This document shows, one piece after another, positions 38,251 to 56,380 of a stretch of 64,000 nucleotides of DNA. Location: positions 20,534-84,533 of the forward strand of contig JAAEOK010000033.1 in NCBI GenBank assembly GCA_024244705.1, written 5' to 3'. Under the pieces are notes generated by a model. It worked only from the letters and a program-made list of their open reading frames with translations. It searched no databases and was not told where the DNA came from. Origin of the DNA: Alphaproteobacteria bacterium (lineage in GTDB: Bacteria; Pseudomonadota; Alphaproteobacteria; JAAEOK01). The position numbers and the translations under genes are program-made. The number at the start of each line of letters is the position of its first letter. Position 1 is the first letter of the stretch.

Positions 38251-40182
<1,932 letters not shown>

Positions 40183-49770: not shown

Positions 49771-50667
49771 CTAACTTCGCAGCACCGGGCGCGTCATACA
49801 GGTCGGGCCGCCTTCACAGGGAATACAGATCGCGTCGCCGGGGAAGGTGTCGATGCGACAGCCGGCGTCGACCAGGCGGCGGACGGTTTCCGGCGCGCCG
49901 TCGATCATCACACCATGGCGCGGCGCCACCGCGAGAATATTGAGACAGAGGCCCTTGGTCGCCGCGAATTCGTCGACCGGCGCCTCGACCGGGGTCACGC
50001 CCCGCGCGATGAGGAGCTGGTAGAGCGCGACCGGCAGCAGCGGCCGATAGATCAGCGCCAGGTCTTGGTCGAGCAGGCTGATCAGCGACATCAGGTGAAG
50101 GCAGGCCGCCTCGCCCTCCCACATCGGCAGATCGAAGGCGACGACCTCGACGCCGAGCGGCTCGAGGAGTGCGGCGAGCTGGTCGATCCCGGCTTGGTTG
50201 GTCCGGAAGCCGCGGCCGACGGTCAATGTGTCCCGATCGAGCCAGACACAGTCACCGCCTTCGACCCGCCCCGGATCGGCGATCCGCCCCAAGATCGGTA
50301 TGCCATGCCGGCGATAGGTGCGGTCGTGAAGCGCGACCTCGGGCTGGCGCAGCGCCTTGCCCATGTTGAGCAGCACCGCGCCGGCTGCGGTGACCAGCGA
50401 AGGATCGTGGGTGAAGACGGCATCGGCGAGACCGTCGCCGGCGTCGTCGGTCCACAGGATCTCGGCGCCGGTCGCCGCGACCAACGCGGCGAAGGCTTCG
50501 TATTGGGCGGCGAGTGCGGCGCCGTCGAGGGCCGCCGCATAGTGCCAAATCGCCGGGTCGGCGCCGGTCATCGCCGAATTCGGCCGGTGCATGATGACCC
50601 GCCTCAGCGGCGCGACCATGTCCTGAGCGCCGTAGCCCCCGATCGCCGTCTTGCGTAGCTCATTCAT
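49771..50667 (-). CDS. Guanidino-group modifying enzyme (dimethylarginine dimethylaminohydrolase / arginine deiminase-type amidinotransferase)
   Basis: Family-typical layout with the C-terminal catalytic Cys block EGGPTCMTRPV. 298 aa. Confidence 0.7.
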   Translation of the reverse strand: MNELRKTAIGGYGAQDMVAPLRRVIMHRPNSAMTGADPAIWHYAAALDGAALAAQYEAFAALVAATGAEILWTDDAGDGLADAVFTHDPSLVTAAGAVLLNMGKALRQPEVALHDRTYRRHGIPILGRIADPGRVEGGDCVWLDRDTLTVGRGFRTNQAGIDQLAALLEPLGVEVVAFDLPMWEGEAACLHLMSLISLLDQDLALIYRPLLPVALYQLLIARGVTPVEAPVDEFAATKGLCLNILAVAPRHGVMIDGAPETVRRLVDAGCRIDTFPGDAICIPCEGGPTCMTRPVLRS

Positions 50668-51280
50668 TTCCTTGTACCCGTTCCATGTCGGCGCGGTCGT
50701 CCACCAGCAGCGCCAATGCGTCCGCGGATGCGATCGCCGTGCAAAACTCGCCGTGCAAGTTGGCCACCGTGGTGCGGTGGATCAAATCCGGATCGAAATC
50801 GGTGCCGTCCGGCGCCAGCCGATTGGTGCAGGCGCAACCCTCGGGCACGAGGTAGGTGTCGAAACCCAGATTGCCCGCCATGCGCACGGTCGTCTCGACG
50901 CACATATTGGTGAAGAACCCCGCCACCACTAGGCGGTTGACGCCCCGTCGGCGCAACGCGAGCTCGAGATTGGTTCCGATGAACCCGCTGTTGACGTCTT
51001 TCCGGACCGTGATGTCATCCTCGCGGGGCTCGAACCCCTCCTTCAGCCGCCCGCCTGGTTGGGAGAGTTTGAGTGGCGAGGCCGCTTCACGCGAATCGTG
51101 GAGCGTGAAGGCAACGGGAAGCGCCTGCTGTCGCCAGCCGTCGAGAAGCCGCCGCATGGCCGCCTCCGCGTCCGGGTTGTTGCGCCGGGCGTTCGGCCCG
51201 CCCCAATAGGCGAGCGCGTCGACGCCCTGTTGCACGTCGACCAGCAACAACGCCGTTTCGGCACCGAATCTACGGATCAT
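50660..51280 (-). CDS. Isochorismatase-family cysteine hydrolase
   Basis: ALLLVDVQ N-terminal strand and VVAGFFTNMCVETT (catalytic Cys). Overlaps the downstream gene by 8 nt. Confidence 0.8.
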   Translation of the reverse strand: MIRRFGAETALLLVDVQQGVDALAYWGGPNARRNNPDAEAAMRRLLDGWRQQALPVAFTLHDSREAASPLKLSQPGGRLKEGFEPREDDITVRKDVNSGFIGTNLELALRRRGVNRLVVAGFFTNMCVETTVRMAGNLGFDTYLVPEGCACTNRLAPDGTDFDPDLIHRTTVANLHGEFCTAIASADALALLVDDRADMERVQGNE

Positions 51281-51304
51281 TCCAGCACTCCGGCGACAAC
51301 AGAT

Positions 51305-52450
51305 TCAATCGCGTGATTCGAAGCGCAGGACACGCAGCCGGCTTTCGTAGTCCTCCCGGTTCACATAGCAGCCGTGGAAGACCCGTTTGCCGGTGTAGCT
51401 CATGCGGCCATGGAGAACGCGCCAATTGTTGAAGATCAGCGCCATGCCGGGGCGCAGTCGGATCTTGAGCCAATTCGCCTGATCGCACAGGCGCCGATGA
51501 AGCTCGCCATAGGCCTGGTAGAACGCGGTCATCTCGGGCTCGGGAAGACAGAACGGCGCGCGGTCATAGTTGTTGAACGTAATCTGCACGAGCTCGCCGC
51601 GCGAATCCAACCGCAGCGGCGCCCGCTCGGCGTTCAGATAGACACCCGGCTCGACGTAGCGTCCCGGAACGATGACCCGGGTCAGGGTCTCGTAAGACGC
51701 GGGCGCATCGGCCGCGATCGATCGGGCGACCGCGAACCCGTCGACCAGGATGCTCTCGCCACCGCTGCCGTCGAATTCTGCACAGTTGAACATTTGCAGG
51801 CCGGGCGCATCGTGGCTGTAGGTGGCGTCCGTATGGGGCTCGAGATATTCGGTCGAATAGGCGGTGTCGGCGTGTTCCTCGAGTTCCGCCGACAGGGTCG
51901 ACACACCGCCGAAAATGGTCCGCCGGACATAGCCGACGCGGTTGGCGATCGCCGCCGTCGCCTCGACCGTCGCCGGCACGCCGTCGACCACGCAGAGCCC
52001 CCACACGTAAATATTCACCAGCATCTCGCGCAGGACCCGGTCGTCGGCCAGGAGCCCGTCATTGGCGACCATGGGCAGCGGGTCGGGCGCGTCCGCCGCC
52101 GTCCAATAGGCCGGGCTTTGCTCCGCTCCGACGTGATCCGGGCTGGGCGCAAGGTCTGCGATGGCGGCGAGGAACTCGGCCGAGTACTCGCTCGCGGCTT
52201 GGCCGTTGTTCCAGATTACGGCGAGGCGATCGCCGCCCTCCTCGATGCGGACGTCGACGCCATGGATATCGGCCGGAATGGCAAAGGTGTCGACGCGGCG
52301 CTGCAGCGTTCTCGGGTCGAGGCTGCCTTCGTCTTCGCCATGGTCGCACAGCCAGAACCAGGGAAACGTCGAATCACCCTCCGAACCGGCCCAGCGCACG
52401 CGCAAACCGGCGTCCGTCGGCCGTGCGTCGAGAAGTCTGAGCTCGGTCAT
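51305..52450 (-). CDS. TauD/TfdA-family Fe(II)/2OG dioxygenase, gamma-butyrobetaine hydroxylase-like
   Basis: N-terminal DUF971-like segment (LRVRWAGSEGDSTFPWFWLCDH), HTD iron triad element (EPHTDATY), and NNWRVLHGR. Confidence 0.8.
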   Translation of the reverse strand: MTELRLLDARPTDAGLRVRWAGSEGDSTFPWFWLCDHGEDEGSLDPRTLQRRVDTFAIPADIHGVDVRIEEGGDRLAVIWNNGQAASEYSAEFLAAIADLAPSPDHVGAEQSPAYWTAADAPDPLPMVANDGLLADDRVLREMLVNIYVWGLCVVDGVPATVEATAAIANRVGYVRRTIFGGVSTLSAELEEHADTAYSTEYLEPHTDATYSHDAPGLQMFNCAEFDGSGGESILVDGFAVARSIAADAPASYETLTRVIVPGRYVEPGVYLNAERAPLRLDSRGELVQITFNNYDRAPFCLPEPEMTAFYQAYGELHRRLCDQANWLKIRLRPGMALIFNNWRVLHGRMSYTGKRVFHGCYVNREDYESRLRVLRFESRD

Positions 52451-52577
52451 GGCGCACCACCTTTGCCTTGTCCAAAGAAGTCAAATGCAGTAATTGTACG
52501 AATGTACAATTCCAACAAACGCTCGTCAACAGGGTGCGCGATCACCCGATCGACGAAACGCGGAGAGGCAGGGCCCG

Positions 52578-53228
52578 ATGGCCGGCGATACGGTCAAATT
52601 CCGCCGCAAAGGCGAAGAGCGCCGTCGCCAGGCCTTCGTCGAGGCGACCCTCGACTGTCTTGCCGCGCACGGCTACCACGGCACCACGGTGCGCAAGATC
52701 GCGGCGCTGGCGGGGGTCGCCCCGGGCCTGCTCACCCATTATTTCAGCGGCAAGGAAGCGGTCGTCGGCGAAGCCTATCGAATATTGGCGGCGCGCCTGC
52801 TGCGGCAATGTCTCGACGAGGCGGAGCAGGCCGGCGAGGCCCCCATTGCCCGGCTGCGCGGATTCGTCCTGGCGTGTTTTCAGACCCCGAGCCTAGATCC
52901 CAATCTGCTTCGCGTCTGGGTCAATTTCTGGGCGCTGACCTATACCCATGACACCATTCGCGCGGCCCATGCGGAAACCTACGGCGCCTACCGGCGGGCG
53001 CTGACCGGGCTGATCGCCGATGTCCTCGCCGCGGCGGGGCGCCCGGTCGCCGGGCCCGAACTGGCGCGGCTCGCGATCGGCGCCAATGCCGTGCTCGACG
53101 GCTTGTGGCTCGAATACTGCCTCGATCCCAGCGCGTTCAAGACGGAAGATGCAGGCCGTATCGCCTGCCATTATGTCGGCAGCGCCCTCGGCGTCGACCT
53201 GTCGCCAGCCGCCAATCCGAAATCGTGA
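52578..53228 (+). CDS. TetR/AcrR family transcriptional regulator (BetI-like)
   Basis: HTH region FVEATLDCLAAHGYHGTTVRKIAALAGVAPGLLTHYF. GGAGAGG SD upstream of ATG 52578. Confidence 0.85.
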   Translation: MAGDTVKFRRKGEERRRQAFVEATLDCLAAHGYHGTTVRKIAALAGVAPGLLTHYFSGKEAVVGEAYRILAARLLRQCLDEAEQAGEAPIARLRGFVLACFQTPSLDPNLLRVWVNFWALTYTHDTIRAAHAETYGAYRRALTGLIADVLAAAGRPVAGPELARLAIGANAVLDGLWLEYCLDPSAFKTEDAGRIACHYVGSALGVDLSPAANPKS

Positions 53229-53341
53229 CACCGGGCGTGTGACGTCCAGCGGATGGCGCACACGATAGCCATCAAGGATCGGGCCTTGTGACAGGCGGCA
53301 AGTTGCGCCAATAGTCGTCCTTTCGATGTACAAACGGGCCG

Positions 53342-56300
53342 ATGACCGTCACCAGCTTCGATACCGCGCCGCCGCGCCTCGATAGTTCCGCGCTGGCGGA
53401 CATCGCCGCCACCCATTTCGGTATAGACGGCGCGATCGAGACCCTCGATTCGGAACGCGACCAGAATGCGCGGATATGCTGCATCGATTCGGACTCTTAT
53501 GTCCTGAAAATCGCCAATTCGGCAGAAAGCCTGGAATTCCTCACCATGCAGAACGCTGCGCTGCGGCATCTCGCGGACCGCGATCCGGCGCTCGGCGTGC
53601 CCCGCGTCTGCCCGGCCCGAGACGGTAACGGACTCGCCACCCTCGGCGACGGCGACGGCAATCTGGTCCGAATGTTGACCTACCTGCCCGGCACCGTTCT
53701 CAAGGAGGCGCCCAAATCGCCCCGCCTGCTCACGAACCTCGGACGTTTCATGGGGCGGGTGGACAGCGCCCTTCAGGGCTTCATGCATCCGGCCGCGATT
53801 CGCCCCGACTTCCTGTGGAACCTCGACAATGCCGCCGCCTGCCGAGACTACGTCGAGGCCATCGAACCGCCGGAAGACCGCGCTCTCGTGGCGACGGTTT
53901 TCGATCGCTACGAGGCCGTCGTTGGCCCGCGCTTAGGCGGGCTGCGCTGCGCGGTCATTCATCAGGACGCCAACGATTACAACGTCCTGGTCGATGCGGC
54001 CGACCCCGAGGAAATCACCGGCCTGATCGATTTCGGCGACATGGTCTGGGGTCGGCAGATCAATGACCTCGCGGTCACCCTCGCCTACGCGCTGCTCGAT
54101 CACACCGATCCGCTGGCGGGTGCCGGCCACGTCGCCGCCGGCTATCACGACGTCTTTCCGCTGCAAGAAGCCGAGTTGGCGGTATTGATGGACCTCGTCG
54201 CGCTGCGGCTGGCGATGAGCGTCTGCATCTCCTCGCACCGCGGCGCCGCGCACCCCGACAATGAGTACCTGCTGATCAGCCGGCGACCGGCCCTCGAACT
54301 GTTGCGCCGCCTGGCTGGCATCAATCCGGATTTCGCCCATTTCACACTCCGCGACCGGTGCGGCTATCCAGCCGTGCCGCGGGGGGCCGAAGTGGCCGGT
54401 TGGCTGGCCGAGAACCGGGCCCGTTTTGCCCCCGTCCTCGGCACCGACCTGCGACGGGCGCGCAAGATCTATTTGCCGATGACCGATGGGGCGCCGGGCG
54501 TGGAGCATGCCGCCGACCCGGCCGCCTATACCGAATTCGTCGCCGACTGGCTGGCGCGGCATGATGCCGATTTCGCAATCGGCGGATACGGCGAGGACCG
54601 CGCGGTCTATCTCGGCCCGCAGTTCTCCTCGGATGACGGCTCGGCGACGCGGACCGTCCACCTCGGCATCGATCTGTTCGGCCCCCGCCGGCATCCGGTG
54701 CACGCCCCGATCGCTGGCCGGGTCATCAGCGCGGTCGACAACGCCGCGCCCTACGATTACGGCCCGACGATCATCCTCGAACACCCGACCCTTCCGGACG
54801 GCCCCCGCTTCTGGACCCTTTACGGACATCTCAGCCGCGACAGCCTCGACGGACTCGCGCCCGGGACCGACGTCGCGACGGGCGACCGCATCGGTTGGTT
54901 CGGCGAGCCCGACGAGAACGGCGGCTGGGCGCCCCACCTCCATTTCCAAATCATGACCGACCTGTTGGGCCTGGATGGAAACTTTCCCGGGGTCGGGGAA
55001 CGGCAACGCATTGCGGTGTGGCGCGCGATCTGCCCCGACCCCAATCTGGTTCTCGGCCTGCCGCCGGAGGCACTCGGTCCTCCCGGCCGCGATCACGATC
55101 GCCTGCGCGCGGCTCGGCAGCAACGGCTCGGACCCTCGCTCAGCCTCAGTTACAGCCATCCGCTCGAGATCGTCCGCGGCGACGGCGTGTGGCTGATCGA
55201 CCACCGCGGGCGCGCCTATCTCGATTGCGTCAACAACATTTGCCACGTCGGCCATTGCCACCCCCATGTGGTCGCGGCGCTCGGCCACCAAGCCACGATG
55301 CTCAACACCAATACCCGCTACCTCCATGAAACGGTCGTCGATTATGCCGCCCGCCTGACGGCGCTCCTGCCCGAGCCGCTCGGCGTCTGTTTCTTCGTCT
55401 GTTCGGGGAGCGAGGCCAACGAGTTGGCGGTGCGCCTGGCACGCACCCATACCGGTCGCGGCGACGCCGTCGTGCTCGACGGCGCCTATCACGGCAACAC
55501 GTCGACGCTGGTCGGCCTCAGCCCCTACAAGTGCGAAGGGCCCGGCGGCCAGGGCTTGAAGCCCGATGTCCACAAGGTCGCCATGCCCGACCCCTATCGC
55601 GGACCTCATCGCGGCATGACCCCGGCCACCGGCCAGGCCTATGCCGAGGACGTGACGCGAACCGTCGACGCGTTGACCGGCGCCAACACGCCGCCGGCGT
55701 TCCTGATCGCCGAATCCCTGTTGAGCTGCGGCGGACAGATCGAGCTCCCGCCGGGATACTTGAAGGCCGCTTATGCCGCGGTCCGTGGCGCCGGCGGGGT
55801 CACCATTGCCGACGAGGTCCAGGTCGGTTTTGGCCGCGTCGGCAGTGCCATGTGGGGCTTCGAGACCCAAGGCGTGGTGCCCGACATCGTCACCCTCGGC
55901 AAGCCGATCGGCAACGGCCATCCGCTGGCCTGCGTGGTCACCTCGCCGGCGATCGCCCGATCGTTCGCCAACGGCATGGAGTATTTCAATTCGTTCGGCG
56001 GCAACCCGGTCTCCTGCGCCGTCGGCATGGCCGTTCTCGACGTGATCGAAAACGAGCACCTGCAAGACAATGCGCGCCAGGTCGGCAAATATCTCCTCGA
56101 GCGCCTGCGCGGCCTCCGGACCTCTCATGCCATGATCGGCGACGTCCGCGGGCTCGGTCTCTTTGTCGGCGTCGAGCTGGTCACCGACCGGACGACGCGG
56201 GATCCAGCGACCGCGGCCGCCAAAGCGGTGGTCAATCGGGCCAAGGACATGGGCGTGCTGCTGTCGACCGACGGCCCCTTCGACAATGTCATCAAGATCA

Positions 56301-56380
56301 AGCCGCCGCTGGTCTTCTCGCGCGCCAACGCCAACCTGTTAGTCGACACGCTCGATCGGGCCTTGGCTTTGGAAATTTGA
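53342..56380 (+). CDS. Tri-domain fusion: APH/homoserine-kinase-II-like kinase, M23 (LytM) peptidase-like domain, class III PLP aminotransferase-fold domain
   Basis: N-terminal APH-type catalytic loop [13 protein letters not shown] and IDFGD. The middle domain has HLGIDL (H440) and PHLHFQI (H532/H534). The C-terminal domain has [38 protein letters not shown] (PLP Lys) and a class III aminotransferase layout. No signal peptide. Confidence 0.85.

Follow-up and report, generated by a model that had tools for sequence, protein, structure and literature searches.

In animals, the APH-fold kinase HYKK/AGPHD1 and the phospho-lyases PHYKPL (AGXT2L2) and ETNPPL (AGXT2L1) form a kinase/lyase pair acting on amino alcohols, and bacterial bi- and trifunctional fusions were reportedly used by Veiga-da-Cunha et al. 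in 2012 to deduce the functions of these animal enzymes. A phosphotransferase and an aminotransferase are also found together in RMM microcompartment loci, which have been read as amino-alcohol degradation loci (PMC4207490). Here we analyze a five-gene block of an Alphaproteobacteria bacterium, located at positions 49771 to 56380 of a 64,000-nucleotide (nt) stretch of contig JAAEOK010000033.1 (hereafter the window), in which a fusion of a kinase, an M23 peptidase domain and a pyridoxal-phosphate (PLP) enzyme lies beside a tetR gene and a divergent unit encoding an Fe(II)/2-oxoglutarate (2OG) dioxygenase, an isochorismatase-family hydrolase and a DDAH-like hydrolase.

A preliminary description of this block had joined the five genes into a single route that hydroxylates, phosphorylates and then eliminates. 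Comparison with other genomes does not support such a linear pathway, which we consider unlikely. The block probably consists of two evolutionarily independent catabolic modules that are neighbors only in this genome. Module A comprises tetR, its probable operator and the divergent dioxygenase/isochorismatase/DDAH-like operon, and probably serves a cationic arginine-type amino acid, N-methylated or otherwise modified. Module B is the fusion; by analogy with the animal enzymes, its substrate is most likely a 1,2-amino alcohol such as 5-hydroxylysine, handled separately from module A.

Gene neighborhoods and locus organization

Conservation of the gene neighborhood had been set beforehand as a test in the preliminary description. 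Among 80 fusion-encoding loci, inspected up to 10 kb on each side, none contained a homologue of the DDAH-like, isochorismatase, dioxygenase or TetR genes. Conversely, the fusion gene was absent from all 87 loci encoding dioxygenase relatives and from the 8 extended DDAH-like loci examined in other genomes. We consider the modules independent, since the fusion and the module A genes never occur together in these three sets, and the same sets offer no comparative support for module B consuming the product of module A.

The features of the locus are the following:

49771-50667, minus strand: arginine deiminase (ADI)/DDAH superfamily hydrolase gene (P0242), 298 amino acids (aa), Pfam PF02274, 60 bits
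50660-51280, minus strand: isochorismatase-family cysteine hydrolase gene (P0243), 206 aa, Pfam PF00857, 104 bits
51305-52450, minus strand: TMLH/GBBH/TmpA-family Fe(II)/2OG dioxygenase gene (P0122), 381 aa, Pfam TauD
52492-52511, dioxygenase-tetR spacer: perfect 8+4+8 palindrome AATTGTAC-GAAT-GTACAATT, putative TetR operator
52578-53228, plus strand: TetR-family repressor gene (P0244) with a BetI-type C-terminal domain, 216 aa, Pfam TetR_N and TetR_C_6
53288-53315, plus strand: promoter-like site GTGACA-16-AATAGT before the fusion gene
53326-53333, plus strand: operator half-site ATGTACAA, 9 nt 5' of the fusion ATG
53342-56380, plus strand: kinase-M23-phospho-lyase fusion gene (P0001), 1012 aa, Pfam and NCBIfam NF004799/PRK06148

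The positions of the open reading frames (ORFs), together with Pfam and NCBIfam, confirmed the five genes and the domains first assigned to them, as well as the 8-nt overlap of the isochorismatase-type and DDAH-like genes (50660-50667). The tetR and fusion genes are co-directional and both diverge from the minus-strand unit; the block lies between a prsW-like gene on its left and a moeB-like gene on its right, both convergent. A synteny test for insertion of the block, based on prsW and moeB, yielded two PrsW relatives, whose loci of just ~3 kb each contained prsW alone among the tested window genes.

Around the fusion, no neighbor family recurs in more than 6 of the 80 loci. The recurring neighbors, each within this limit, are an oligopeptide-ABC ATPase, a short-chain dehydrogenase/reductase (SDR), an AsnC regulator, SBP_bac_3, an M20 peptidase and members of the proline-racemase family. 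None of the six closest fusion relatives examined (60-63% identity) has a homologue of any of the window's four neighbor genes at its locus, and four of the six sit among unrelated genes, such as glnB/glnA and a glutathione S-transferase gene.

The 40 nearest genomes are all related to the source genome at class level only, and in the species set the source organism apparently stands alone in its family, and probably also in its order. A class-level sample of 400 genomes gave only 4 dioxygenase matches, hence the use of metagenome loci for the dioxygenase neighborhoods.

The dioxygenase of module A

The dioxygenase had first been described as resembling gamma-butyrobetaine hydroxylase. Its place in the Fe(II)/2OG family was upheld, but trimethyllysine dioxygenase is the closer relative: the best NCBIfam model, TIGR02410, gave 248.2 bits (cutoff 268.3), compared with 231 bits for the TmpA model and 220 bits for the GBBH model, and every equivalog cutoff was missed. 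Alignments with TmpA (6npb) and BBOX1 identify the Fe(II) ligands as H206, D208 and H347 and the 2OG-binding residue as R356, all of them invariant in the family.

Regarding the aromatic cage, F180, Y198 and Y362 are kept, and the fourth position, that of BBOX1 W181, is occupied by Ser184 (codon TCG). This position is a Trp in 87 of 88 homologue segments aligned by tblastn. Across 24 aligned homologues and the 87 loci, Ser184 is common only to the dioxygenases of the window and of the metagenome contig L085, and no other position distinguishes these two from the remaining sequences. They are also the two that are accompanied by the isochorismatase/DDAH pair. A sequencing error at Ser184 was considered and rejected, since the L085 homologue carries the same residue. 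Replacement of the cage Trp by Ser184 suggests a change in the head group that is recognized, and we infer that it probably shifted from trimethylammonium to a bulkier or more polar group, for example a (methyl)guanidinium.

At the position of BBOX1 Asn191 and TMLH Asp231, the dioxygenase has Asp195, which is invariant in the family alignment. TMLH Asp231 has been proposed to bind the alpha-ammonium group of the substrate (PMC7764450), so that the substrate of the dioxygenase is likely an alpha-amino acid.

The two hydrolases and their contexts in other genomes

In the DDAH-like protein, sequence inspection and a partial DDAH alignment revealed the catalytic Cys289 (GGPTCMT) and His191 (LHLMS). 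The best PDB match is Pseudomonas DDAH (E 4e-9), and the scores fall far below the model cutoffs, with 82.8 bits against 340 for NF045660 (DDAH) and 63-67 bits against 414-489 for the ADI models. Arg residues are kept at DDAH-aligned positions that bind the substrate carboxylate in DDAH. The isochorismatase-type protein shows, by inspection, D14 (LLVDVQ), K93 (VRKDVNSGF) and C127 (TNMCVETT) at the motifs of the D-K-C triad. Its best PDB match is the uncharacterised 3mcw, followed more weakly by biuret hydrolase, RutB and an N-carbamoylsarcosine-amidase-related protein, each of them a hydrolase of ureido or amide groups. A search of the ESM Atlas returned generic family names only.

The same pair of genes, with the same 8-nt overlap, is present in the unrelated metagenome contigs L085 and L178. 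L085, contig Ga0568844_0001265 of JGI 3300056877, encodes TetR (62% identity), dioxygenase (61%), isochorismatase (73%) and DDAH-like (72%) homologues together with an SBP_bac_3 ATP-binding cassette (ABC) transporter. In L178:2576-7197 (Logan SRR31724246 contig), the pair lies between an AsnC regulator and ornithine aminotransferase (TIGR01885, 503 bits for a cutoff of 378) on one side and an oxidoreductase and amino-acid permease on the other. This layout suggests a route from an arginine-type compound through a citrulline-type compound to ornithine, via an isochorismatase-family ureidohydrolase.

Genomes encoding DDAH-like homologues with 54-61% identity numbered 10 and belong to two alphaproteobacterial families; in the loci examined, most are accompanied by a 37%-identical TetR and all by a polar-amino-acid ABC transporter. 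The one such locus annotated in full, L201:5370-13112, contains DDAH-like, TetR and 5-guanidino-2-oxopentanoate decarboxylase genes (the last with 779 bits to NF005712, cutoff 500), divergent from genes for a polar-amino-acid ABC transporter and an Ldh_2-family dehydrogenase. Loci L199, L202 and L206 are similar to it, the DDAH-like identity in this group being 55-60%, and the DDAH-like gene is present in all 8 sampled genomes of one genus. On the dioxygenase side, a classical DDAH adjoins the dioxygenase in L087, and more distant relatives pair with threonine-aldolase-type lyases and betaine-type transporters.

Taken together, these contexts suggest a modular, recurrent regulon serving basic amino acids that are methylated or carry a guanidino group, the window version being aimed at an arginine-type compound. 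We propose an arginine-type substrate because of the contexts with the decarboxylase, ornithine aminotransferase, classical DDAH and ABC transporters, and because of Asp195. The guanidino-modifying role first given to the DDAH-like enzyme agrees with its gene contexts in other genomes.

In the proposed scheme, TetR would repress the divergent promoters until its ligand binds. The TMLH-like dioxygenase would introduce a hydroxyl group into the carbon chain of an alpha-amino acid, held in a pocket in which Ser184 replaces the cage Trp. The DDAH-like Cys hydrolase would then turn the (methyl)guanidino group into a ureido group via a Cys-thiouronium intermediate, after which its translationally coupled partner, the cysteine amidohydrolase, would split off the carbamoyl group in the form of CO2 and NH3 and leave an ornithine-type product. 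The gene content of module A, its catalytic residues, the conserved operator sequence and the recurring contexts are observed, and its substrate, step order and regiochemistry are what we infer from them.

TetR, its probable operator and the possible reach of the regulon

TetR most likely starts at ATG 52578, with a GGAGAGG Shine-Dalgarno sequence 9-15 nt upstream; the alternative start TTG 52494 was disfavored, as it falls inside the palindrome. The protein has the TetR_C_6 domain type in common with BetI, scores 104 bits with the BetI equivalog TIGR03384 (cutoff 201) and has no adjacent bet genes.

The palindrome at 52492-52511, which shares positions with the -10 hexamer of a promoter-like site (52529 to 52501) for the minus-strand operon, very probably serves as the TetR operator. 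Its core, TTGTAC-N4-GTACAA, also occurs in the TetR-dioxygenase spacers of L085, L087, L094 and L096, precisely the four with a TetR that reaches 50% identity or more to that of the window, and the 4.5-Mb genome contains no second full site, even with one mismatch allowed. A divergent TetR-dioxygenase pair is found in 11 of the 87 dioxygenase loci.

Several observations weigh against a strict separation of the two modules. The fusion gene follows tetR on the same strand after 113 nt, with no terminator predicted between them, and a perfect right half-site (TGTACAA within ATGTACAA) precedes its ATG by 9 nt. This 8-mer is expected ~4e-4 times in a spacer of this size and has 3 copies in the window for 0.22 expected; at 53326-53333 the left half matches at 2 of 7 positions, which makes it a half-site only. 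The third copy, at 40039, falls within a reading frame taken to encode the dnaK C-terminus and was set aside as chance. At related loci, pathway genes for a threonine-aldolase-type lyase, a transporter or a flavin oxidoreductase occupy the slot 3' of tetR, so that the fusion could be a lineage-specific recruit to the regulon; L085, the only close analogue of module A, ends inside tetR. Downstream of the closest fusion relative, L176 (63%), there is also a TauD-family dioxygenase gene. Given the half-site, the adjacency and the lack of a predicted terminator, the fusion may be co-expressed with tetR.

The TauD-family gene of L176 (L176:10355-11411) lies 66 nt 3' of the fusion and is split by a frameshift, on a contig whose name is labelled 1.34x. 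Its protein has no detectable similarity to the window dioxygenase, matched no NCBIfam model and belongs to a different subfamily.

These observations bear first on the linear pathway, in which all five genes would form one TetR regulon and the product of module A would feed the fusion. (Homo)arginine, or a methylated form, would be hydroxylated at the carbon next to the side-chain CH2-N, de-amidination by the DDAH-like and isochorismatase-type enzymes would give 4-hydroxyornithine or 5-hydroxylysine, and the fusion, by phosphorylating the hydroxyl and eliminating phosphate and ammonia, would convert these into glutamate or aminoadipate semialdehyde. The strand of tetR, the adjacency, the half-site at 53326-53333 and the lack of a predicted terminator favor it, as does the TauD-family neighbor in L176. 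The slot 3' of tetR elsewhere holds pathway enzymes, including threonine-aldolase-type lyases that would act on a beta-hydroxy amino acid. In addition, GBBH and TmpA hydroxylate the carbon beta to nitrogen, and a hydroxylation of this type would create the 1,2-amino alcohol needed by phospho-lyases. However, co-conservation is absent from the 80, 87 and 8 loci, the operator sequence before the fusion is a half-site, and the L176 dioxygenase is not detectably similar to that of the window. Furthermore, the invariant Asp195 argues for a TMLH-type anchoring of the alpha-ammonium group, hence for hydroxylation at C3 on the precedent of TMLH, and the product would then not be the terminal 1-amino-2-ol of the known ETNPPL/PHYKPL substrates. 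We thus regard the complete pathway, with these steps, as doubtful.

Less likely still is that the fusion has been recruited into the TetR regulon such that a modified arginine or homoarginine would be hydroxylated, de-amidinated by the DDAH-like enzyme and a new isochorismatase-family "citrullinase-type" amidase, phosphorylated and eliminated to a semialdehyde.

We give a similarly low standing to a looser arrangement, in which the genes would be co-located, and perhaps co-regulated, with each salvaging a different post-translationally modified basic amino acid from proteolysis: the dioxygenase methyl-lysine or methyl-arginine, the DDAH-like enzyme and amidohydrolase methylarginine via citrulline to ornithine, and the fusion hydroxylysine. 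The TMLH-like cage and alpha-ammonium Asp retained by the dioxygenase family are in keeping with it, as are the recruitment of two different DDAH types beside the dioxygenase and the presence of 4-hydroxyproline-epimerase-family, oligopeptide-ABC and M20-peptidase genes in some fusion loci. Against this, the link would be purely thematic, the window encodes no shared transporter, and each of the fusion neighbor families is limited to at most 6 of 80 loci. Two independent modules remain the arrangement that we consider probable.

The fusion protein of module B

The fusion contains three domains, of which the outer two, as the preliminary description had proposed, are identified by Pfam as an APH-fold kinase and a class III PLP enzyme:

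residues 51-267, nt 53492-54142: APH-type small-molecule kinase domain (PF01636, 87 bits)
residues 439-539, nt 54656-54958: Peptidase_M23 domain (Pfam)
residues 607-1008, nt 55160-56365: Aminotran_3, ETNPPL/PHYKPL-type PLP phospho-lyase domain (PF00202, 259 bits)

By sequence, the protein is a typical representative of PRK06148, a very large and already catalogued family. It passes the NCBIfam model NF004799 (PRK06148) with 1306.7 bits for a cutoff of 1128, residues 11-1009 being covered; the model carries the name "hypothetical protein". In the family search, 7974 of 8000 scored candidates were significant. Almost all of the 8000 unite kinase and lyase in one protein, and the three domains are present in 120 of the 120 matches listed. 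Members were found in Proteobacteria, Gemmatimonadota, Acidobacteriota, Bacteroidota, Actinomycetota, Chloroflexota and Asgard archaea. The domains also occur in smaller combinations (kinase alone, kinase with M23, kinase with PLP domain), and one stand-alone kinase homologue, with 37% identity, bears the JGI name hydroxylysine kinase.

The PLP domain aligns almost without gaps over 420 residues with human ETNPPL (PDB 6tor, 486 bits) and scores 344 bits with the Arthrobacter phospholyase (PDB 5g4i). The best non-lyase class III structure, dialkylglycine decarboxylase, gave 200 bits, leaving a gap of ~290 bits to ETNPPL, and all other class III structures, among them those of GABA, ornithine and acetylornithine transaminases and of racemases, gave at most 200 bits. 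This gap in PDB bit scores, rather than a phylogenetic tree, places the domain in the ETNPPL/PHYKPL phospho-lyase lineage and apart from the true transaminases, in agreement with the kinship first proposed for it. It is thus very improbable that the PLP domain is an ordinary omega-transaminase beside a kinase with an unrelated substrate, for example in antibiotic resistance: the Pfam and NCBI names, just "aminotransferase class III" and "phosphotransferase", would accommodate this, but the ~290-bit gap, the few gaps in the ETNPPL alignment, the near-constant kinase-lyase fusion and the hydroxylysine kinase name of the stand-alone homologue all speak against it.

An alignment of 24 homologues (52-62% identity to the window protein) revealed that the catalytic residues of the three domains are invariant. 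In the kinase, whose motifs are intact, these are the ATP-binding Lys K56, H207, D209 and N214 of the HxDxxxxN loop and the DFG-like Asp D230. In the M23 domain, they are H440 and D444 (HLGID), H496 (YGHLS), and H532 and H534 (PHLHFQ), which align with the HxxxD and HxH zinc ligands and the catalytic His of lysostaphin. In the PLP domain, the PLP-binding lysine is K854, in GKPIGNGHP. An AlphaFold (AF2) model of the full-length protein, obtained with this alignment, reached a mean pLDDT of 86 and a pTM of 0.75. The best structure for the kinase domain, 6ef6, labelled "aminoglycoside phosphotransferase", is of weak similarity (E 2e-7).

The M23 zinc ligands and catalytic His are all kept across phyla, in what appears to be a cytoplasmic protein. 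Stand-alone kinase genes 56-59% identical to the APH domain were found at L174:9001-10211 and L175:9001-10026. Behind the L174 gene comes an ORF of 61 codons with a match to the final 35 residues of the PLP domain, apparently what a deletion has left of a fusion, and SDR, BKACE and 3-hydroxyacyl-CoA-dehydrogenase genes lie downstream. The source genome also encodes a second, stand-alone class III PLP protein of 447 aa (G000:C53:71485-72687; L002:1474-2817, minus strand), 41% identical to the PLP domain of the fusion, whose best solved relative is also ETNPPL (300 bits).

Module B would thus phosphorylate a 1,2-amino alcohol, the leading candidate being 5-hydroxylysine, and then eliminate phosphate and ammonia to form an aldehyde.

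Significance

The fusion itself is not new, since its family is catalogued and the kinase/lyase logic of the bacterial fusions is said to have been published by Veiga-da-Cunha et al. in 2012. Module A brings together members of known enzyme families in an uncharacterised, modular form that recurs in other genomes, and its operator is clearly defined; the presence of the isochorismatase/DDAH gene pair goes along with one substitution in the cage, Trp to Ser. Elsewhere, the coupled pair stands beside ornithine aminotransferase, an arrangement that suggests conversion from guanidino through ureido to amine with an isochorismatase-family ureidohydrolase. These features provide testable predictions on the bacterial use of methylated or otherwise modified arginine. 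A search of the published literature on the bacterial fusion, the A1RDF1 phospholyase and a DDAH/isochorismatase/dioxygenase operon returned nothing relevant. If the fusion had been recruited into the regulon, the result would be an undescribed route releasing all side-chain nitrogen as ammonia. The case also illustrates how weak adjacency in a single genome is as evidence for a pathway.

Comparison with known systems

The TetR protein shares with BetI and other TetR repressors the TetR_N and TetR_C_6 domains, the divergent arrangement and a 16-bp palindrome over the -10 element; unlike BetI, it scores below the equivalog cutoff (104 versus 201) and its neighbors are not bet genes. Like TMLH, BBOX1 and TmpA, the dioxygenase has the HxD...H triad and the 2OG-binding Arg; it keeps all but one of their four cage aromatics and has the TMLH-type Asp, but differs from them by the Ser in place of the cage Trp, by its below-cutoff scores and by neighbors that modify guanidino groups rather than belong to the carnitine pathway.

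The DDAH-like protein shares the catalytic Cys and His of DDAH and arginine deiminase, and the isochorismatase-type protein the D-K-C triad of N-carbamoylsarcosine amidase, RutB and biuret hydrolase, both far below the respective cutoffs. As a pair, they resemble the two-step guanidino to ureido to amine logic of agmatine deiminase and N-carbamoylputrescine amidase; we know of no isochorismatase-family enzyme described as cleaving citrulline or a citrulline analogue.

For the fusion, the Arthrobacter aurescens A1RDF1 phospholyase (5g4i) is a bacterial precedent of a class-III-fold phospho-lyase (344 bits), as a separate protein without M23. The mycobacterial RMM amino-alcohol kinase/phospho-lyase pair, with its precedent for an APH-fold amino-alcohol kinase, likewise consists of separate proteins without M23, and the kinase similarity, to structure 6ef6, is weak (E 2e-7). 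With the animal HYKK/AGPHD1 and PHYKPL (AGXT2L2)/ETNPPL (AGXT2L1) enzymes, the fusion shares the combination of an APH-fold kinase with a class-III-fold PLP enzyme and the same proposed pair of reactions, whereas here a single chain carries both, separated by an intact M23 zinc-peptidase domain. Among the loci of bacterial PRK06148/PRK06149 fusions examined, the window copy alone adjoins a TetR/dioxygenase operon.

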